Assembly: GCA_902801845.1 (NCBI GenBank)
Contig: CADCJW010000002.1
Span: forward strand, 305,627-369,626
DNA from: an uncultured Eubacteriales bacterium
GTDB taxonomy: Bacteria > Bacillota > Clostridia > Christensenellales > CAG-138
Direction of reading: 5' to 3'
DNA: 64,000 nucleotides
In this document: positions 6,181-20,865 of the stretch, one piece after another
Position numbering within the stretch: position 1 is the first letter of the stretch
Layout: every line of letters begins with the position of its first letter
Position numbers and translations under genes: made by a program
Notes under the pieces: generated by a model
Told to the model about the DNA's origin: nothing
Database searches by the model: none
The model's input: only the letters and a program-made list of their open reading frames with translations

Positions 6181-6233
6181 GTTCCTTTTTCTCTTCGGTG
6201 AAGAGAACAAGGAACCGAAAAAAAGAAGCACAC
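6181..6233 (-). repeat. Intergenic hairpin repeat, copy 1 (reverse orientation)
   Basis: GTTCCTTTTTCTCTTC-ggt-GAAGAGAACAAGGAAC followed by CGAAAAAAAGAAGCACAC. It is the reverse complement of the consensus seen at 10283, 17653 and 27388. Confidence 0.85.
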
Positions 6234-10282: not shown

Positions 10283-10334
10283 GTGCTTCTCTTTTTCGGT
10301 TCCTTTTTCTCTTCACCGAAGAGAAAAAGGAACA
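10283..10334 (+). repeat. Intergenic hairpin repeat, copy 2 (forward)
   Basis: GTGCTTCTCTTTTTCG flank, then GTTCCTTTTTCTCTTC-acc-GAAGAGAAAAAGGAAC (16-bp perfect stem). Confidence 0.9.
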
Positions 10335-15020: not shown

Positions 15021-15494
15021 TTACGCCTGCCAGCCCTTGCACACGTCGATCCAGCCCTTGGACCCGGAATGCTTTTCCAGCTCCAAAAGGGTGAGCTCGA
15101 TGGCGCTGTTGGAGCTGCCGCAAGCTGGAAAGACCGTGTCGAACCGCTTCAAGGACACGTCCAGGTAGGTGCTCACCCCCTCGTTCACGGCGAAGGGGCA
15201 GACTCCGCCCACAGCATGCCCCACCAGCGTGGATGCCTCCTCGGGGGAAAGCATCTTCGCCTTGGTGTGGAAAAACGCCTTGAACTTCCCGTTATCCACG
15301 CGGGCATCCCCGGCGGCCACCACCAGCACCGGCGCCCCGTCCACCAGGAAGGACAGCGTCTTGGCGATCCGGCAGCCTTCGCAGCCCAAGGCGGCCGCGG
15401 CCAGCTCCACCGTGGCGCTGGATACCGGGAACTCCAGCACCCTTTCCGCCATGCCGCAGCGCTGAAAGTATTCTCTTACCCGTTCGATGGACAT
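15021..15494 (-). CDS. YbaK/EbsC-family aminoacyl-tRNA deacylase domain protein
   Basis: 157 aa. The KTL..V.....GD..VD..K and GGVCPF patterns are typical of the YbaK/ProRS-associated editing domain. Confidence 0.7.
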   Translation of the reverse strand: MSIERVREYFQRCGMAERVLEFPVSSATVELAAAALGCEGCRIAKTLSFLVDGAPVLVVAAGDARVDNGKFKAFFHTKAKMLSPEEASTLVGHAVGGVCPFAVNEGVSTYLDVSLKRFDTVFPACGSSNSAIELTLLELEKHSGSKGWIDVCKGWQA

Positions 15495-15804: not shown

Positions 15805-16518
15805 TTACTGGACCGGTTGAAGGGAGTCGTAAACGACCTTCAGCCCGTCGGCGTACGCCGTTTGATCCCCCACCCAGATGAGCAGGACCAGCTTCTCCCC
15901 CCGAAGGAAGATATGGCCCACAAAATCGTAGGTCTCCCCGTTCACCGTAACGTCGGAAGCACCCCGGTAGCAGGGGGTACCGTTGAGCTTGGTCTTTTGG
16001 ATGGACACGGGCGACAGGGTGAACCCGGTGACGCCGTTGCTGGTCAAAGCCCCCTCCACCATGGAGGTGATGGCCTCGTCGGAGGAAAAGAACAGGGCGA
16101 GGTCCACCATGGTCTCCGTCAGATTCATGTCGTTGGGCACCTCCTGATAGGAGAGGCAGGTGTGGTCGGTGTCGTCGAGGTCCGGGTAGAAAAAGACCCC
16201 GTCCTCCACCTTGGCCTGGAGCCATTCCCCCGGCGCCTGGAAGCGGAAGTAGGTCCCCTCGTAGGTCTGGAGCGGCGCTTGTGTCGCCTCGGGCGTGGCG
16301 GCAGGCGGCTCAGGCGAGGGCGAAAGCGTGACCCCGCAGGTGACGGAGGGCGATGCCGTGGGCTCCGGCTCAGGGGATGCGTCCGGGACCGGGGGCGTTT
16401 CTTGCGCAGCCTCCTGAACGGTGGCAGGGGCGTCGCCCCGCTCTGAGCGCGGGTTGGGCAGCGATACGCAGCCCGTCAGCAGCAACAGGCAAAGACAAAG
16501 GATCATCAGCTTTTTCAT
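15805..16518 (-). CDS. Lipoprotein of unknown function
   Basis: Start at ATG 16518 (RBS GGGGAGGAG). Lipobox MKKLMILCLCLLLLTGC, followed by a Pro/Glu/Ala/Thr linker. Confidence 0.7.
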   Translation of the reverse strand: MKKLMILCLCLLLLTGCVSLPNPRSERGDAPATVQEAAQETPPVPDASPEPEPTASPSVTCGVTLSPSPEPPAATPEATQAPLQTYEGTYFRFQAPGEWLQAKVEDGVFFYPDLDDTDHTCLSYQEVPNDMNLTETMVDLALFFSSDEAITSMVEGALTSNGVTGFTLSPVSIQKTKLNGTPCYRGASDVTVNGETYDFVGHIFLRGEKLVLLIWVGDQTAYADGLKVVYDSLQPVQ

Positions 16519-16528
16519 AGGGATCGTT

Positions 16529-16894
16529 TCACTCCTCCCCGGCATCCTTGGGCCCGCTGTCGCCGAAGACGGCCGCAAAATCCGCCTTGGCGTGGTCGTT
16601 GACCAGGGCGCAGAACCGGTCGTATTTTTCGAGAAAGGCCCGTCCCTCCGCCGTCAGGGAGGCGCCGCCGCCCTCCTTGCCGCCGGTGGTGGTGACGAGC
16701 AGGGGGAAGCCCAGCTCCCGCTCCGCCCGGCGGATGATGGCCCAGGCCTTACTGTAGGCCATGCCCATGGACAAGGTGGCCTGGCGGATGGAATGGTAGG
16801 TCTCCACCCGGTGGAGGAGGGCCGCGATGCCCGGGCCGAAAAACTTTTCCTCCCCCATGATCCGGGGAGAGACGATGAAGCGGATTTGGTTCAT
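16529..16894 (-). CDS. ModE-N-terminal-like winged-helix DNA-binding protein
   Basis: 121 aa starting at ATG 16894 (RBS AAAGGAGG). The SIRQAT..MGMAYSKAW......E...G.PL pattern resembles the ModE/LysR-like HTH. The rest of track ORF 16529..17632 is an artefact. Confidence 0.65.
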   Translation of the reverse strand: MNQIRFIVSPRIMGEEKFFGPGIAALLHRVETYHSIRQATLSMGMAYSKAWAIIRRAERELGFPLLVTTTGGKEGGGASLTAEGRAFLEKYDRFCALVNDHAKADFAAVFGDSGPKDAGEE

Positions 16895-17006
16895 AGGGCC
16901 TGCCTCCTTTTTGTGTATCATACCGCAAAAGGTCGAAACAGGCAAGAGCCGCCCCGATTGACAGGGGAAAAAGCCCATGATACACTGCAAAAAAGGAGGC
17001 GTGGAT

Positions 17007-17387
17007 ATGGGCTTCTGGATCTTTATGACGTGCATGACGGCGCTGCTCCCCCTGACCATGGCGGGGTTCGGGTCCCGGTTCGGGAAGAAGCCGCCCCGAC
17101 GCAACGGCGTCTTCGGGTACAAGACCACCCGATCCATGAAGAACGACGACACCTGGGATTTTGCCCATCGGTACGTTGGCCGGCTGTGGCGGTATTGGGG
17201 GCTGGTGACGCTGTTTGCCGCGCTCCTGGTCATGCTCCTGGTGCTGAATCGGGACGTGGAAACCGTAGGCTGTGCGGGAACGGTGCTGGTGTTCGCCCAG
17301 TTGGTCCCCCTCTTCGCCAGTATCTTCGCCACGGAGCGGGCGCTGAAGCGGACCTTCGATCGGTTCGGGCAGCGGATCGAGGGCTGA
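17007..17387 (+). CDS. SdpI/YhfL-family membrane protein
   Basis: Start at ATG 17007 (RBS AGGAGG). The N..FGY.T..S.....W..A pattern and 3-4 TM helices fit this family. Confidence 0.55.
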   Translation: MGFWIFMTCMTALLPLTMAGFGSRFGKKPPRRNGVFGYKTTRSMKNDDTWDFAHRYVGRLWRYWGLVTLFAALLVMLLVLNRDVETVGCAGTVLVFAQLVPLFASIFATERALKRTFDRFGQRIEG

Positions 17388-17410
17388 AGGGCCCTTTTTT
17401 CGTACGGGGG

Positions 17411-17439
17411 TTGACAGACGGGCGGACATGGGATAATAT
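17411..17439 (+). promoter_or_regulatory. Promoter of the trp leader / trpB2 operon
   Basis: TTGACA, 17-nt spacer, TAATAT. Confidence 0.55.
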
Positions 17440-17471
17440 AGTATATAATTTCTGAGGAAAGGAGCACGGTC

Positions 17472-17555
17472 ATGGGCAGGAACGTCGCAGGGTCCTTCTG
17501 GTTTAGCGGCTGGTGGTTTAGCCGCCGTTTTGCGCTGCCCTGGAATGGATCGTGA
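17472..17555 (+). CDS. Candidate Trp-codon-rich leader peptide (27 aa): MGRNVAGSFWFSGWWFSRRFALPWNGS
   Basis: RBS AGGAAAGGAG lies 8 nt upstream. There are four UGG codons, including a tandem pair at 17511-17516. An intrinsic terminator lies 21 nt downstream, and the next gene is a tryptophan-synthase beta homolog. Confidence 0.6.
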   Translation: MGRNVAGSFWFSGWWFSRRFALPWNGS

Positions 17556-17575
17556 GCCGCTCGGCATGGAAGCAC

Positions 17576-17606
17576 GGGCCTCGTCCAACAGGGCGAGGCC
17601 TTTTTA
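17576..17606 (+). terminator. Intrinsic terminator (putative attenuator) upstream of trpB2
   Basis: GGGCCTCG-tccaacagg-CGAGGCC followed by TTTTT, inside the 5' leader and 124 nt before the trpB2 start. Confidence 0.7.
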
Positions 17607-17652
17607 TGTGGATGGATTGGAAGCTTTCGCACTCTCCCCCATTTTACCCCTT

Positions 17653-17708
17653 ACGCTTCTCTTTTTTCGGTTCCTTTTTTCTCTTCACCGAAGAGAAAAA
17701 AGGAACAC
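17653..17708 (+). repeat. Intergenic hairpin repeat, copy 3 (forward), located in the trpB2 5' leader
   Basis: ACGCTTCTCTTTTTTCG flank, then GTTCCTTTTTTCTCTTC-acc-GAAGAGAAAAAAGGAAC (17-bp stem). Confidence 0.9.
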
Positions 17709-17729
17709 AAAACCCAGGAGGAAAAAAAC

Positions 17730-19091
17730 ATGGAAATCCCCTACAAGATCTACCTCAGCGAATCGGAGATGCCCCGGTACTGGTACAACGTCCGGGCCGA
17801 CATGAAGAAAAAGCCGGCGCCGCTCTTGAACCCGGGCACCCACAAGCCAATGACCGCCGCCGAGCTCTCCGGCGTGTTCTGCGACGAGCTGGTCAAGCAG
17901 GAGCTGGACAACACCACCCGGGAGTACCCCATCCCCGAGGAGATCTTGAGCTTCTACCGCATGTACCGGCCCTCGCCTCTGGTACGCGCCTACTGTCTGG
18001 AGGAGAAGCTGAAGACCCCGGCCAAGATCTATTATAAGTTCGAAGGCAACAACACCTCCGGCAGCCACAAGCTGAACTCCGCCGTGGCCCAGGCCTACTA
18101 CGCCAAGCAGCAGGGCCTCAAGGGCGTCACCACCGAGACCGGCGCCGGCCAGTGGGGCACGGCCCTGTCCATGGCCTGCAGCTACTTCGGCCTCGACTGC
18201 AAGGTGTACATGGTGAAGGTGAGCTACGAGCAGAAGCCCTTCCGCCGGGAGGTCATGAAGGTCTACGGCGCCTCCGTGACCCCCTCCCCCTCCGACACCA
18301 CCCAGGTGGGCCGGAAGATCCTTCAGGAGCACCCGGGCACCACGGGAAGCCTGGGCTGCGCCATCTCCGAGGCCGTGGAGACCGCCGTATCGAATCCCGG
18401 CTACCGGTACGTGCTAGGGAGCGTATTGAACCAGGTGCTCCTCCACCAGAGCGTCATCGGCGTGGAGACCAAGATCGCCATGGACAAGTACGGCATCCAT
18501 CCCGACGTCATCATCGGCTGCGCCGGCGGCGGCTCGAATCTGGGCGGCCTCATCGCCCCCTTCATGGGCGAAAAGCTCCGGGGCGAGCGGGACTGCCGGT
18601 TCATCGCCGTGGAGCCTGCCTCCTGCCCCAGCCTGACCCGGGGCGTCTACGCCTACGACTTCTGCGACACGGGCATGGTCTGCCCCCTGGCCAAGATGTA
18701 CACCCTGGGCAGCGACTTTATCCCCGCCCCCAACCATGCGGGCGGCCTCAGGTACCACGGCATGAGCCCCATCCTCTCCGAGCTCTACCACCAGGGCATG
18801 CTGGAGGCCGTCAGCGTCCCCCAGACCGCCGTCTTCGAGGCCGCCGAAGCCTTCGCCCGGGTGGAGGGCATCCTCCCCGCCCCCGAGAGCAGCCACGCCA
18901 TCAAGGCGGCCATGGACGAGGCCATCCGCTGCCGGGAGACGGGCGAGGAGAAGACCATCCTCTTCGGCCTCACGGGCACAGGCTACTTCGATCTGGTGGC
19001 CTACGAGAAGTTCCATAACGGCCAGATGGACGACTACGTGCCCACGGACGAGGAATTGACCGCCTACGCCGCAAAATTGCCCAAAATTTGA
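17730..19091 (+). CDS. trpB: TrpB2-type (long, stand-alone) tryptophan synthase beta-like PLP enzyme
   Basis: 453 aa. PLP-lysine context NNTSGSHKLN, a GAGQWG loop, and GCAGGGSN. This length is typical of the TrpB2 clade. No trpA is adjacent. Confidence 0.8.
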   Translation: MEIPYKIYLSESEMPRYWYNVRADMKKKPAPLLNPGTHKPMTAAELSGVFCDELVKQELDNTTREYPIPEEILSFYRMYRPSPLVRAYCLEEKLKTPAKIYYKFEGNNTSGSHKLNSAVAQAYYAKQQGLKGVTTETGAGQWGTALSMACSYFGLDCKVYMVKVSYEQKPFRREVMKVYGASVTPSPSDTTQVGRKILQEHPGTTGSLGCAISEAVETAVSNPGYRYVLGSVLNQVLLHQSVIGVETKIAMDKYGIHPDVIIGCAGGGSNLGGLIAPFMGEKLRGERDCRFIAVEPASCPSLTRGVYAYDFCDTGMVCPLAKMYTLGSDFIPAPNHAGGLRYHGMSPILSELYHQGMLEAVSVPQTAVFEAAEAFARVEGILPAPESSHAIKAAMDEAIRCRETGEEKTILFGLTGTGYFDLVAYEKFHNGQMDDYVPTDEELTAYAAKLPKI

Positions 19092-19119: not shown

Positions 19120-20421
19120 ATGGAAAGATACTACCAACCCGAGATCGAATGCGCGTCCCGGGAGCAAATCGAACGATGGCAGAGCGAGCGCCTCATCGCC
19201 CAGGTCCGCCGGGTCTGGGAGAACGTGCCCTACTATCGGAAAAAGATGGAGGAGAAGGGCGTGACGCCGGAGGATATCCAGGGCGTCCGGGACCTTCCCA
19301 AGCTCCCCTTCCTCTCCAAGGCGGACCTTCGGGACGCCTACCCCTACGGCCTCATGGGCAAGCCCCTGAAGGACTGCGTCCGCATCCACTCCACCTCCGG
19401 CACCACCGGCAAGCGGGTGGTGGCCTTCTACACCCAGCACGATATCGACCTGTGGGAGGACTGCTGCGCCCGGGCGCTGACGGCCGCCGGCGCTACCGAC
19501 GAGGACGTGGTCCAGGTGTCCTACGGCTACGGGCTGTTCACCGGCGGAGCGGGTCTCGACGGGGGGAGCCACAAGGTGGGCTGCCTTACGGTGCCCATGT
19601 CCTCCGGCAACACGGACCGGCAGATCATGTTTATCCGGGATCTCGACGCCACGATCCTCTGCGCCACCCCCAGCTACGCCGCGTATCTGGGCGAGCGGAT
19701 GCAAGAACTGGGGCTGGGCCCCGAGGACATCCCCCTGAAGGCGGGCATCTTCGGCGCCGAGGCCTGGTCCGAGGAGATGCGCCGGGGCATAGAGAGGACC
19801 TTGGGCATCAAGGCCTACGACATCTACGGCTTGACCGAATTGTCCGGCCCCGGCGTCAGCTTCGAGTGCTCCTGTCAAAACGGCATGCACATCAACGAGG
19901 ACCACTTCATCCCCGAGATCATCGACCCGGACACCGGCGAGGTGCTCCCCGAGGGCGCTCAGGGCGAGCTGGTCATCACGGCGGTGGACAAGGAAGCCTT
20001 CCCCATGATCCGGTACCGCACCAAGGATATCTGCTCCCTGACCTACGAGAAATGCCCCTGCGGCCGGACCCACGTGCGCATGACCAAGCCCAAGGGCCGC
20101 AGCGACGACATGCTGATCATCCGGGGCGTCAACGTGTTCCCCAGCCAGATCGAGACGGTGCTTTTGAACCACGGCTACGCCGCCAACTACCAGATCCTGG
20201 TGGACCGGGTCAACAACACCGACACCTTCGAGATCTTGGTGGAGATGACGCCGGAGATGTTCACCGACTCCATCGGCGAGATACAGCAGCTGCAGAAGAC
20301 CCTGTCCTTGGGCCTCAACTCCATGCTGGGCATCCGGCCCAAGGTCACCCTGGTGGCCCCCAAGACCATCGCCCGCAGCGAAGGCAAGGCCGTCCGGGTC
20401 ATCGACAAGCGCAAGATCTGA
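19120..20421 (+). CDS. paaK: Phenylacetate-CoA ligase family (PaaK-like aryl-acetate--CoA ligase)
   Basis: 433 aa. The N-terminal ...RE.IE..Q...L...V......VP.YR pattern, STSGTTGK (AMP-binding P-loop), and a C-terminal ...GK..RV.D.R motif. Confidence 0.8.
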   Translation: MERYYQPEIECASREQIERWQSERLIAQVRRVWENVPYYRKKMEEKGVTPEDIQGVRDLPKLPFLSKADLRDAYPYGLMGKPLKDCVRIHSTSGTTGKRVVAFYTQHDIDLWEDCCARALTAAGATDEDVVQVSYGYGLFTGGAGLDGGSHKVGCLTVPMSSGNTDRQIMFIRDLDATILCATPSYAAYLGERMQELGLGPEDIPLKAGIFGAEAWSEEMRRGIERTLGIKAYDIYGLTELSGPGVSFECSCQNGMHINEDHFIPEIIDPDTGEVLPEGAQGELVITAVDKEAFPMIRYRTKDICSLTYEKCPCGRTHVRMTKPKGRSDDMLIIRGVNVFPSQIETVLLNHGYAANYQILVDRVNNTDTFEILVEMTPEMFTDSIGEIQQLQKTLSLGLNSMLGIRPKVTLVAPKTIARSEGKAVRVIDKRKI

Positions 20422-20433
20422 AAGGAGGACCCC

Positions 20434-20865
20434 ATGAGCATCCGACAACTATCCGTCTTTTTGGAGAACCGCCCCGGCAAGCTCTTTGAGCTCACCGCCC
20501 TTTTGGCCGAGCACGGCATCGACATGCGAGCCCTGTCCATCGCGGAGACCACGGACTTCGGCATCGCCCGGCTCATCGTGGACGACGCGGACAAGGCCGC
20601 TCAGGTTTTGAAGGAGGCCCGGTGCATCGCCCGGTTCTCCGACGTGCTGGCCTTCGCGGTGCCGGACGAGCCCGGCGGCCTCCACCGGCTCTTGTCTGAG
20701 TTCAACGCCGCCCAGGTGAACATCGAGTACATGTACGCCTTTCTGCAAGGCAAGGAGGGCCGGGCCTACATGATCTTTCGGGTCACGGACACGGTGGCCT
20801 CGGAAAAGGCCCTGCAATCCCGAGGCTTAATACCCCTGACCCTGAAGGAGATCAGTGCTGTTTGA
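20434..20865 (+). CDS. ACT-domain (amino-acid-binding) protein
   Basis: 143 aa. The tandem ACT-like pattern QLSVFLENRPG.L......L is commonly found next to PaaK-like ligases. Confidence 0.7.
   Translation: MSIRQLSVFLENRPGKLFELTALLAEHGIDMRALSIAETTDFGIARLIVDDADKAAQVLKEARCIARFSDVLAFAVPDEPGGLHRLLSEFNAAQVNIEYMYAFLQGKEGRAYMIFRVTDTVASEKALQSRGLIPLTLKEISAV

Follow-up and report, generated by a model that had tools for sequence, protein, structure and literature searches.

The trpB2 gene (17730..19091) lies on the plus strand of the stretch of DNA analyzed here, which spans 64,000 nucleotides and is called the window below; all features are on the plus strand unless stated otherwise. It encodes a stand-alone type of TrpB-like PLP enzyme, tryptophan synthase beta-2, which matched the profiles NF009057 at 685.7 bits (cutoff 366), TIGR01415 at 590.6 bits (cutoff 518.85) and also PF00291. 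A gene for a PaaK-like aryl-acetate-CoA ligase (19120-20421) follows after a 28-nt gap and a gene for an ACT-domain protein (20434-20865) after another gap of 12 nt. A terminator scan found none between trpB2 and the ligase gene, and co-transcription of the ligase and ACT genes with trpB2, the first gene of the presumed regulated unit, is probable.

On its upstream side the region is bordered by an SdpI-like gene that ends at 17387 and has its own terminator-like hairpin (17379-17396). Between this hairpin and a short leader ORF lies a sigma-70-type promoter (17411..17439), in which the -35 hexamer TTGACA (17411-17416) and the -10 hexamer TAATAT (17434-17439) are separated by a 17-nt spacer; it has 10 of 12 matches in a promoter consensus scan, and we infer a transcription start near 17446. 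The Shine-Dalgarno (SD) sequence of the leader ORF, AGGAAAGGAG (17455..17464), was read directly from the sequence and has its GGAG core (17461-17464) 7 nt 5' of the ATG. The leader ORF itself (17472..17555), which is absent from the gene calls of the window, has 27 codons followed by UGA (17553-17555) and would encode the peptide MGRNVAGSFWFSGWWFSRRFALPWNGS. Its four UGG codons are W10 (17499-17501), the tandem pair W14/W15 (17511-17516) and W24 (17541-17543). The tandem pair overlaps a small hairpin formed by GCGGCT (17506-17511) and AGCCGC (17520-17525), and a second copy of AGCCGCT stands at 17555-17561, where it overlaps the stop codon. Downstream of the ORF is an intrinsic terminator (17576..17606) with an 11-bp stem, GGGCCUCGUCC/GGGCGAGGCCU, an AACA loop (arms and loop, 17576-17601) and then UUUUU. 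Its energy is -22.3 kcal/mol (z = -5.4 versus shuffles), and none of 200 shuffles was as good.

An earlier note on this DNA, made by eye, had described the promoter, the strong SD sequence, the 27-codon ORF, the small hairpin, the AGCCGCT repeat and the terminator, and when we reread the sequence each was where the note had placed it. The note had also put the terminator upstream of a TrpB homologue; trpB2 starts at 17730. A minus-strand ORF (16529-17632) spans the leader; the real gene is only the 3' third of that ORF, with an HTH_1 match at 16529-16894, and the part antisense to the leader gave no family match.

Trp codons and conservation of the leader

The Trp content of the leader had been presented as a large enrichment. 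Measured against usage in real genes (0.8%), it gives a binomial P of 7e-5, which is the wrong null for out-of-frame GC-rich DNA. Among all ATG-initiated ORFs of 15-45 amino acids in the six frames of the window (n = 241; window 61% GC), 6 have at least four Trp codons and 4 have a WW pair. The Trp richness is thus not beyond chance and by itself is weak evidence. The four UGG codons, tandem pair included, are present as the note had said, but the signal was overstated, since only two to three of them are conserved. The tandem WW is invariant in 12 distinct aligned peptides, and L004 has W-R-W (UGG-CGG-UGG). W10 is a frequent third Trp codon among the orthologues without being universal. W24 is specific to the window: in the nearest relative, L131, whose peptide has the same N-terminus, PGIGS replaces the PWNGS of the window. 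W24 is probably not regulatory; it sits within the antiterminator strand described below, and a ribosome stalled there would favour termination.

We recovered 19 further leaders, 5 through an unbiased search with TrpB2 and 14 from metagenomes through a DNA search whose pattern contained TGGTGG and TGCCC, so that these 14 cannot be counted in independent support of either motif. Scanning genomes with TrpB2 gave five loci that were at least 87% identical and had usable upstream sequence (L001-L004 and L008, which with the window form the unbiased subset), and each has a homologous leader ORF with two Trp codons and a terminator. Twelve of the 14 metagenome leaders are on contigs that reach the following gene, and in all 12 that gene is trpB2. 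The organisms behind the 20 leaders are close relatives (TrpB2 87-95% identical), and in every leader a frame of 84 to 90 nt is open, two Trp codons are present and a terminator follows. The 18 full leaders retain the promoter, SD sequence and ATG: TTGACA and a TAnAAT-like -10 hexamer stand in the same place in 18/18 orthologous leaders with upstream sequence, and a purine-rich GGAG, GGGAG or GGAAG lies 7-9 nt 5' of the ATG in 18/18 aligned leaders.

Several features of the alignment are those of a translated frame. Frame 0 is open in 18/18 leaders, while frames +1 and +2 contain stops in 6/18 and 16/18, respectively. The ORF is 84, 87 or 90 nt long, its indels being multiples of 3, and the distance from WW to the stop codon is 42 nt in 17 of the 18. 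The N-terminal codons drift in sequence and length, in frame, with the SD sequence and ATG fixed. The earlier note had proposed an alignment of orthologous leaders, and in ours the terminator, the tandem Trp codons and the ORF with its frame all persist as the N-terminal codons drift.

The peptide has a conserved core, FxF-S-G-W-W-F-S-R-x-F-x-x-P-x-x-G-S, with an invariant Pro five codons before the stop. Synonymous sites are also nearly fixed: the columns for GGC-UGG-UGG-UUY-AGC-CG, CCC (Pro), GGA and UCG are invariant or nearly so. Within segment 2 (defined below), this appears compatible with constraint at the RNA level. The core is conserved beyond the need of a pure codon counter, which RNA pairing may explain or which may hint at a peptide-specific effect.

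The arrangement upstream of trpB2 is conserved in 19 other sequences despite differing flanking DNA, and because the whole of it is conserved we take the leader to be a real feature. As judged from these sequences, conservation, not Trp richness, is the real evidence for a leader. Between the window and L131, substitutions in the upstream gene number 8, 4 and 8 by codon position.

Alternative folds of the leader RNA

The leader RNA can adopt two sets of pairings. Segment 1 (17492..17517; codons F9 to W15) forms the 5' half of a stem-loop with segment 2 (17521..17565; codons 17-27, the stop codon and 10 nt beyond), of which 17521-17550 pairs with segment 1. This 1:2 stem-loop is the minimum-energy fold of 17490-17550 (-24.1 kcal/mol) and holds Trp codons inside it. 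RNAalifold recovered it from the 18 leaders, with 16-18 of the 18 sequences paired at 15 of 16 pairs; its inner hairpin has 97% of cells paired and one G-C to A-U change. The small GCGGCU/AGCCGC hairpin of the earlier note does exist, but both the RNAalifold result and the minimum-energy fold show it to be better viewed as part of this larger stem-loop. The terminator consists of segments 3 and 4; across the 18 leaders it has 100% of cells paired, with compensatory changes at 2 pairs.

The earlier note had seen no convincing antiterminator. We found one, in which 17532-17565 of segment 2 (codons 21-27 and the stop region) pairs with 17572-17599, a stretch that begins 4 nt before the terminator and takes in its 5' arm, its loop and the greater part of its 3' arm. 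In the window the antiterminator fold (-31.6 kcal/mol) and the terminator fold (-31.2 kcal/mol) are nearly equal. Across the 18 leaders the two folds differ by a median of +0.65, the difference staying within 4.5 kcal/mol in 13 of them; the antiterminator is clearly weaker than the terminator in L089, L008 and L094 (+6.5 to +9.2 kcal/mol). The antiterminator duplex was better than shuffles in 16/18 leaders (z -1.4 to -4.1) and no better than shuffles in L089 and L008. In aligned columns 84% of its cells are paired, versus 32-46% when the partner is slid, and covariation in fixed alignment columns was not above shuffles. By eye, the terminator loops of L003, L004, L116 and L089, which differ, are still complementary to the codons between Pro and Gly.

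We then folded the RNA with parts masked, as the earlier note had suggested for a ribosome stalled on the leader. When the 5' part was masked to mimic a stall at WW and the RNA was truncated, pairing between the last leader codons and the 5' arm of the terminator, worth -10 to -17.5 kcal/mol, appeared in nearly all of the 16 leaders whose truncated fold was usable. This antiterminator and the terminator are mutually exclusive, and its placement is the one that the classical model requires. Full-length folding with a masked ribosome footprint always kept the terminator; for the antiterminator to appear, the mask had to extend over the 5' region too, or the RNA had to stop short of the 3' arm. 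Such dependence on masking or truncation is the behaviour expected of a kinetic switch.

Two further structures were considered as parts of the switch. The translation-initiation region of the leader, from the SD core to codon 3 (17461..17479), can pair with 17534-17558 in free RNA, and does so when the window and most orthologues are folded to minimum energy. Of its cells in aligned columns, 78% are paired, versus 19-51% when slid; the register differs in L001, L003 and L004, and no significant covariation was found in the aligned leaders. This pairing might sequester both the leader start and the antiterminator strand in free RNA, as the folds weakly suggest. Given its shifting register and lack of significant covariation, we set it aside as the main anti-antiterminator and treat it as a secondary element. 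A second hairpin (17655-17722; -28.8 kcal/mol), whose outer stem can cover the trpB2 SD sequence, was not accepted as belonging to the switch: eight orthologous leaders lack it (L002, L003, L004, L097, L115, L116, L129 and L131), in L001 the trpB2 SD sequence lies ~30 nt farther from it, and it is a dispersed repeat with two more copies in the window.

Comparison with known regulators

The earlier note had allowed that the region might prove to belong to a known riboswitch or T-box class. Rfam gave no relevant match, either across the whole window at the gathering score or in 17300-17800 at E up to 10, and no Rfam family claims the region; the only matches at E up to 10 were chance ones to a miRNA and to Phe_leader on a long repeat hairpin (17663-17713). 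Rfam Trp_leader (RF00513) did not match the leader region at E up to 10. Four leader peptides compared with Pfam and NCBIfam, including the leader and arrest peptide families, gave no match at E up to 10. Between 17400 and 17730 there are nine (G/U)AG triplets, none at the 2-3 nt spacing of TRAP-type repeats (TRAP type, ~11 triplets). A search for a T-box in 17300-17800 gave no match at E up to 10 and no Stem I, specifier loop or T-box sequence.

Most of the other TrpB2 loci retrieved (81-86% identical) have a Trp (UGG) T-box instead of a leader peptide. Rfam T-box matches (E 1e-11 to 1e-18) stand directly upstream of trpB2 in 9 of the 10 other TrpB2 loci scanned (L005 and L009-L016; 64-91 bits), the specifier is UGG in the two T-box alignments inspected, and a T-box sequence motif occurs in 60 of 80 TrpB2 loci. 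Since T-boxes with a UGG specifier stand upstream of it, trpB2 across Clostridia appears to be induced by uncharged tRNA-Trp, and since most other retrieved loci have a Trp T-box, one clade appears to have swapped sensors. The T-box leaders are like the window leader in position, in the orthologous gene, in the signal (tRNA-Trp charging) and in the choice between terminator and antiterminator. They differ in that an RNA of ~230-270 nt binds uncharged tRNA directly, with no translation, whereas the window leader has ~130 nt before its terminator; by eye, the two types of terminator look unrelated. The gene order differs as well: of 12 leader-bearing loci whose sequence extends far enough downstream, 11 have the ligase gene next after trpB2 (L004 is the exception), and in the T-box loci examined it does not stand there.

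By sequence and predicted fold, the leader has the structural elements of a classical attenuator: an SD-led ORF, regulatory codons, a terminator, an exclusive antiterminator and a 1:2 pairing. With trpL of E. coli and other proteobacteria (RF00513 Trp_leader; Pfam Leader_Trp) it has in common a short ORF that has an SD sequence and tandem UGG codons, a 1:2 hairpin holding the Trp codons, a 2:3 antiterminator and a 3:4 intrinsic terminator of comparable stability, and a stop codon placed for a terminating ribosome to cover segment 2. It lacks sequence or covariance-model similarity to trpL. The window-type peptide, at 27-29 amino acids, is about twice as long as that of E. coli trpL, which has 14. 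The window antiterminator strand also pairs with the terminator loop and 3' arm besides the 5' arm, and the unit downstream, in a Clostridia lineage, is not trpEDCBA but a stand-alone trpB2 together with genes for a CoA ligase and an ACT protein.

Classical Trp-codon attenuators are also described in Gram-positives, among Actinobacteria such as Corynebacterium and Streptomyces, with one candidate leader in C. diphtheriae upstream of an operon named trpB2A (PMC1262725). These belong to another phylum and are unrelated in sequence, a comparison made through the negative Rfam and Pfam scans only. The C. diphtheriae "trpB2" is a second trpB paired with trpA (PMC1262725), and the name alone does not make it of the TIGR01415 type. 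The earlier note had called classical attenuation unusual in Firmicutes. It is rare there but not unknown: predictions of His leader attenuators exist for the B. cereus group, Peptostreptococcaceae and Erysipelotrichales (PMC2965389, PMC9413887), and a Leu-rich attenuator peptide is described for ilv-leu of S. aureus (PMC5794164). Several of these peptides are described as replacing a T-box or other regulator in a narrow lineage. They share mechanism class and phylum with the window leader but serve other amino acids and are unrelated in sequence. The literature searched, whose coverage is incomplete so that absence is not proof, held no report of a Trp-codon leader peptide in Firmicutes, Clostridia or Bacillota. 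On these comparisons the window leader is a new sequence family of what appears to be the classical attenuation mechanism.

Discussion

We consider it likely, from the sequences and the modelled folds, that the leader is a classical ribosome-mediated transcription attenuator that senses charged tRNA-Trp and controls the operon of trpB2, the PaaK-like ligase and the ACT protein. The earlier note had read the locus as a ribosome-mediated Trp attenuator, and the orthologous leaders and constrained folding give that reading computational support. All parts of the device are conserved, and the alternative folds exist with the appropriate geometry and near-equal energy. Translation of the leader ORF and a response to Trp are what we infer from them.

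In the proposed mechanism, transcription would begin at ~17446, and a ribosome would load at the SD sequence and translate the 27-codon leader as RNA polymerase advances. Because the Trp codons lie in the 1:2 hairpin, a stall at W14/W15 would release the antiterminator strand, which a ribosome at the stop codon would instead occlude. When Trp is scarce, the ribosome would stall once the A site holds W14 or W15 (W10 too, in most orthologues). The stalled ribosome's footprint (~17496-17529) would cover segment 1, with its edge just short of the antiterminator strand. The freed segment 2 would then pair first with the 5' arm and loop of the terminator as they emerge and afterwards with its 3' arm, so that the terminator would be blocked and polymerase would read through into trpB2. 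When Trp is plentiful, the ribosome would reach the UGA codon (17553-17555) and cover ~17538-17568, which is the antiterminator strand, so that the terminator would form and a ~160-nt transcript would be released. If the leader is not translated at all, segment 1 would pair with segment 2, possibly aided by pairing of the SD region with segment 2, and the terminator would again be free to form. Bacillota are classed as having runaway transcription, in which polymerase outpaces ribosomes (PMC13323073), and tight coupling over ~100 nt is for that reason less certain unless polymerase pauses. The 1:2 hairpin, which precedes a U-rich stretch, may serve as such a pause signal.

The same data bear on other explanations. 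The high conservation of the RNA, even at synonymous sites, together with the placement of almost every nucleotide of 17492-17565 within a predicted helix and the use of an RNA sensor (the T-box) by orthologous genes elsewhere, is what would be seen if the leader acted without translation, as a structured RNA switch recognizing a ligand, a protein or tRNA-Trp, for instance a much reduced ancestral T-box, with the ORF incidental. Such a switch would not account for an SD sequence and ATG kept at the correct spacing, a frame open in 18/18 leaders, indels in multiples of 3 and in-frame drift at the N-terminus; the leader also has none of the T-box elements or Rfam matches sought, and the geometry of a ribosome footprint accounts for the alternative folds without an extra factor. 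We therefore regard an RNA switch as very unlikely. The conserved peptide core, including the invariant Pro and aromatic residues, could instead mark an arrest peptide like TnaC or SecM, with the nascent FxFSGWWFSRxFxxP stalling the ribosome in answer to free Trp, indole or another small molecule and not to tRNA-Trp charging; TrpB2 uses indole, which would make an indole-sensing leader biologically sensible. Yet the conserved residues coincide with base-paired RNA segments, which can explain their conservation, no Pfam or NCBIfam leader or arrest family matched, and the terminator is intrinsic and not a Rho site. The T-box orthologues, moreover, read uncharged tRNA-Trp, the same signal as codon-based stalling, and a ribosome arrested at the stop codon or close to it would sit on the antiterminator strand, giving termination, not induction. 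An arrest peptide is accordingly very unlikely in our judgment, although the peptide itself may make some contribution to stalling.

It is most improbable of all that a spurious W-rich ORF in GC-rich DNA merely happens to lie beside an ordinary terminator with no regulatory role. W-rich short ORFs are fairly common in the window (the 6 of 241 above), but the SdpI-like upstream gene has its own terminator-like hairpin (17379-17396) before the promoter and the ORF, the whole arrangement precedes trpB2 in the 19 other sequences with their differing flanks, and a terminator between a promoter and its gene is a regulatory arrangement in itself.

Taking the locus as a Trp attenuator, a broader joint reading can be proposed, which to us stands evenly balanced between right and wrong. 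It would be the first Trp-codon leader attenuator family in Bacillota; it would have displaced an ancestral Trp T-box in one Clostridia clade (largely rumen and gut MAGs), coincident with the fusion of trpB2, ligase and ACT genes into one unit; the operon might be a salvage operon for indole and indole-3-acetate induced by Trp starvation; and its operation would imply synchrony of ribosome and polymerase over ~100 nt. The last point, if true, would be notable in a phylum generally classed as one of runaway transcription, and a working Trp attenuator would mark a lineage, or a local pause mechanism, with adequate coupling. The apparent sensor swap would mean that one orthologous gene answers the same signal through two unrelated devices, a T-box in most Clostridia and a leader peptide in one clade. 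For annotation, the leader is covered by no RNA family, and the 18-sequence alignment could seed one. For metabolism, the apparent control of a PaaK-like CoA ligase and an ACT protein by Trp offers a testable lead toward the salvage of indole or indole-acetate in gut and rumen anaerobes.

A Trp-rich leader ORF and an intrinsic terminator precede trpB2

On the forward strand, a promoter (TTGACA at 17411-17416, a 17-nt spacer and TAATAT at 17434-17439; 10/12 in a consensus scan) is followed by the Shine-Dalgarno (SD) sequence AGGAAAGGAG (17455-17464) and by a 27-codon ORF (17472-17555) encoding the peptide MGRNVAGSFWFSGWWFSRRFALPWNGS. Its UGG codons, at 17499, 17511, 17514 and 17541, specify W10, W14, W15 and W24. 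A small hairpin (GCGGCU, 17506-17511, with AGCCGC, 17520-17525) lies within the ORF, a second AGCCGCU (17555-17561) overlaps the leader stop codon, and a clean intrinsic terminator (17576-17601; -22.3 kcal/mol, z = -5.4) is followed by UUUUU. All of these elements, which the earlier note had located by eye, were confirmed in the sequence, the ORF list and the translation. The tryptophan-synthase-beta homologue placed downstream of the terminator is a TrpB2-type enzyme, encoded from 17730 (+) (NF009057, 685 bits; TIGR01415, 590 bits).

In the public contig gene calls, an uncalled gap of 343 nt separates trpB2 from the end (17387) of a gene for an SdpI-like membrane protein (126 aa; 17007-17387, +), which is transcribed divergently from a gene for an HTH_1 (ModE-N-like) protein (121 aa; 16529-16894, -). 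These are the real genes of this interval; the long ORFs at 16421-17455 (+) and 16529-17632 (-) were rejected as largely GC-rich artefacts. Farther upstream, the ORF at 15021-15494 (-) encodes a tRNA_edit (YbaK-like) domain.

The leader is conserved in relatives

Trp richness had been taken as a large enrichment. The four UGG codons are there, but their number by itself is not beyond chance: among 241 ATG-initiated ORFs of 15-45 aa in this window (61% GC), six have at least four Trp codons and four contain WW. What counts is the comparison with relatives. A TrpB2 protein scan of one genome per species returned 80 loci, and the five closest with usable upstream sequence (L001-L004 and L008; 87-93% identity) all carry a homologous short ORF and terminator in the same place. 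A pattern scan of metagenome DNA added 14 leaders, for a total of 20 including the window; because TGGTGG and TGCCC were part of the pattern, the 14 cannot be counted as separate support for either motif.

Upstream sequence is available for 18 leaders, all of which have the -35, -10, SD and ATG in position; the ORF measures 84, 87 or 90 nt in all 20. Frame 0 is open in 18/18 aligned leaders; stops occur in the +1 frame of 6 and the +2 frame of 16. Aligning orthologous leaders, as had been proposed, showed that the ORF, the tandem Trp codons and the terminator are kept and that the first 8-11 codons vary both in sequence and in number. The retained peptide core is F-x-F-S-G-W-W-F-S-R-x-F-x-x-P-x-x-G-S-stop, with 42 nt from WW to the stop codon in 17/18 leaders. 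The tandem Trp codons are invariant except in L004, the most divergent leader, which has W-R-W. W10 is common among the leaders, not universal; W24 occurs in the window only.

Predicted mutually exclusive structures in the leader RNA

RNAalifold applied to 18 leaders predicted the terminator together with a stem-loop that has codons F9 to W15 as its 5' half. In the window this stem-loop (1:2 hairpin) pairs 17492-17517 with 17521-17550 (-24.1 kcal/mol). The small hairpin is indeed present, but only as the inner part of this larger structure; 97% of its alignment cells are paired, and one pair changes from G-C to A-U. A U-rich stretch follows the 1:2 hairpin in all leaders, and by analogy with the 1:2 hairpin of E. 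coli we infer that it might serve in pausing.

When full leaders were folded with the ribosome footprint masked, the terminator was always kept, as expected of equilibrium folding, in which terminators are usually favoured. We then masked all of the RNA through the downstream edge of a WW-stalled ribosome and cut it before the 3' arm of the terminator. Truncation gave a usable fold for 16 leaders, and in nearly all of these the final codons of the leader ORF (UUGGAUCG...GCC) pair with the 5' arm and loop of the terminator (GGC...CG.UCCAA), at -10 to -17.5 kcal/mol and at -20.4 kcal/mol for window 17527-17592. Adding the 3' arm extends the pairing: UGCCC(G/U)G binds the end of the loop together with GGGCG in that arm, and the pair list shows the entire terminator unrolled onto 17532-17565. 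Constrained folding thus supplied what had been missed by eye, a mutually exclusive antiterminator (17532-17565 with 17572-17599).

In the window, the antiterminator (-31.6 kcal/mol) and the terminator (-31.2 kcal/mol) are nearly equal under constrained folding; over 18 leaders the median difference is +0.65 kcal/mol, and 13/18 lie within 4.5 kcal/mol. The duplex of antiterminator strand and terminator region reaches -20 to -28 kcal/mol in 15/18, with z scores against shuffles of -1.4 to -4.1 in 16/18; L089 and L008 do no better than chance. In fixed alignment columns, 84% of antiterminator cells are paired versus 32-46% with the partner slid. Covariation in these columns did not exceed that of shuffles, because most positions never vary. 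The more telling sign is the terminator loop, normally unconstrained, which in divergent leaders is by eye still able to pair with the codons that separate Pro from Gly: GCCCGGAAUGGA with UCCAUUUUGGGC in L003 (12 contiguous pairs), GCCCGAAC(C)GGA with UCCGUUUGGGC in L004, AAAUUGGA with UCCAGUUU in L116 and CCGG with CCGG in L089.

If the ribosome has a standard footprint, reaching ~12 nt to the 5' side of the P site and ~15 nt to its 3' side, then stalling with W14 or W15 in the A site would place it over ~17496-17529, including all of segment 1, with its downstream edge exactly at the start of the antiterminator strand. A ribosome at the UGA would cover ~17538-17568, the antiterminator strand. 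The modelled arrangement would be the classical one of four segments (17492-17517, 17521-17565 and the two terminator arms). A stall at W24 would cover the antiterminator strand and favour termination, so this codon is probably not regulatory. It arises from a G-to-U change relative to the GGG or GGA of relatives (the nearest, L131, has PGIGS there), and in the antiterminator fold the changed U is paired with the final A of AACA, the terminator loop of the window. W24 may be a side effect of RNA pairing.

In folds of free RNA, the region from the SD to codon 3 can pair with 17534-17558. This pairing, for which we found no covariation support and which shifts register in L001, L003 and L004, is a possible secondary element that would shut off leader translation and occupy the antiterminator strand.

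Hairpin modules in the spacer before trpB2

A dispersed repeat of ~55 nt, a long pyrimidine/purine hairpin with the core GGTTCCTTTTTTCTCTTC-ACC-GAAGAGAAAAAAGGAAC, lies between the attenuator terminator and trpB2 (17655-17712, +) and recurs in the window at 10283-10333 (+) and 6181-6230 (-). Each copy is intergenic and by eye ~25-60 nt 3' of a terminator-like hairpin. Some orthologous leaders carry this repeat, which may be of a REP-like or MITE-like kind, and L002, L003, L004, L097, L115, L116, L129 and L131 lack it, so the spacer ranges from ~25 to ~330 nt. A second short module, CTTTTCTT-GAAA-GAAAAGG and variants, often with a conserved AAAAGAACTTTAAGAAG on its 3' side, is absent from the window and occupies the spacer of several relatives (L008 2917-2935, L084 1978-1996, L089 1305-1324, L094 733-750 (-), L113 1372-1391 and L120 2775-2796). 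By its appearance, the spacer is a patchwork of hairpin modules that can be inserted.

Alternative explanations and known systems

On computation, the leader quite likely works as a classical Trp attenuator. An RNA switch that is not translated would account for the high synonymous-site conservation, but the leader carries a coding signature and ribosome footprints suffice to explain switching, which makes this improbable. We give marginally less credence to a leader peptide that arrests the ribosome through its own sequence in response to free Trp or indole: the residues it conserves lie where the RNA is paired, termination is of the intrinsic type, and stalling close to the stop codon would cause repression, not induction. 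Conservation and the promoter-terminator-gene order in practice rule out a chance arrangement. Compatible with any of these readings, the released transcript (~160 nt) might in addition work in trans as a small RNA, as does rnTrpL of Sinorhizobium (PMC6614838).

Assignment to a known riboswitch or T-box class by covariance models, named beforehand as counter-evidence, did not emerge from the Rfam search of the leader region, which gave no match. With E values of up to 10 allowed, neither Pfam nor NCBIfam matched any of four leader peptides, and a search of the leader for a triplet array of the TRAP type found none. Feature by feature, the mechanism computed for the window agrees with E. coli-type trpL attenuation. 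Trp leader-peptide attenuators have been reported in Proteobacteria and Actinobacteria (PMC1262725), and in Firmicutes attenuators of this type are reported for His (PMC2965389, PMC9413887) and for Leu (PMC5794164). An incomplete survey of the literature found no Trp case in Firmicutes/Clostridia, which does not show that none exists. As a phylum, Bacillota are assigned to the runaway-transcription class (PMC13323073); this would be a ground for the rarity of such attenuators among them, and it calls for caution on the window case.

A T-box precedes trpB2 in most relatives

In E-value mode, Rfam matched T-boxes at nine of ten other TrpB2 loci (L005 and L009-L016; 84-86% identical). These matches score 64-91 bits (E 1e-11 to 1e-18), and their 3' ends lie 70-150 nt upstream of trpB2 (for example, L012 2673-2916). 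A gathering-mode scan reported none of them since they fall below the RF00230 gathering score (93 bits in the release used), and the gathering-mode scan of the whole window may likewise have missed T-boxes elsewhere. In two alignments the specifier loop reads GAA-UGG-A or GAA-UGG-G, a Trp specifier. Near trpB2 we also observed a second, downstream T-box in L016 (6970-7177, -), a TPP riboswitch in L020 (5130-5238, -) and a NiCo riboswitch in L018 (209-309, -).

Twelve leader loci extend far enough downstream to show what follows trpB2. In 11 of them, all but L004, a gene for a PaaK-like aryl-acetate-CoA ligase (window 19120-20421, +) comes directly after it, and an ACT-domain protein gene (20434-20865, +) comes next in the seven that extend farther still. 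This arrangement was noted for the leader-peptide clade in the window (19120-20865), L001, L002, L003, L008, L081, L094, L097 and L120; it is absent from the T-box loci examined. The two genes may provide a Trp-controlled step activating indole-acetate or phenylacetate. Some rumen anaerobes make aromatic amino acids via reductive carboxylation of aryl-acetates, which makes it tempting to speculate that the operon combines salvage of indole and indole-acetate.

Across the 80 TrpB2 loci, a T-box sequence pattern lies upstream of trpB2 in 60, the leader in five and neither in 13; two were too short. This distribution suggests that trpB2 is normally induced by uncharged tRNA-Trp. The analysis supports the Trp attenuator interpretation of the earlier note and extends it with an antiterminator, a 1:2 hairpin and a T-box replacement: judged by sequence, one clade appears to have swapped the T-box for a ribosome-based device reading the same signal, and the mechanism is a known one, for which the leader would be a new sequence family from an unusual lineage.
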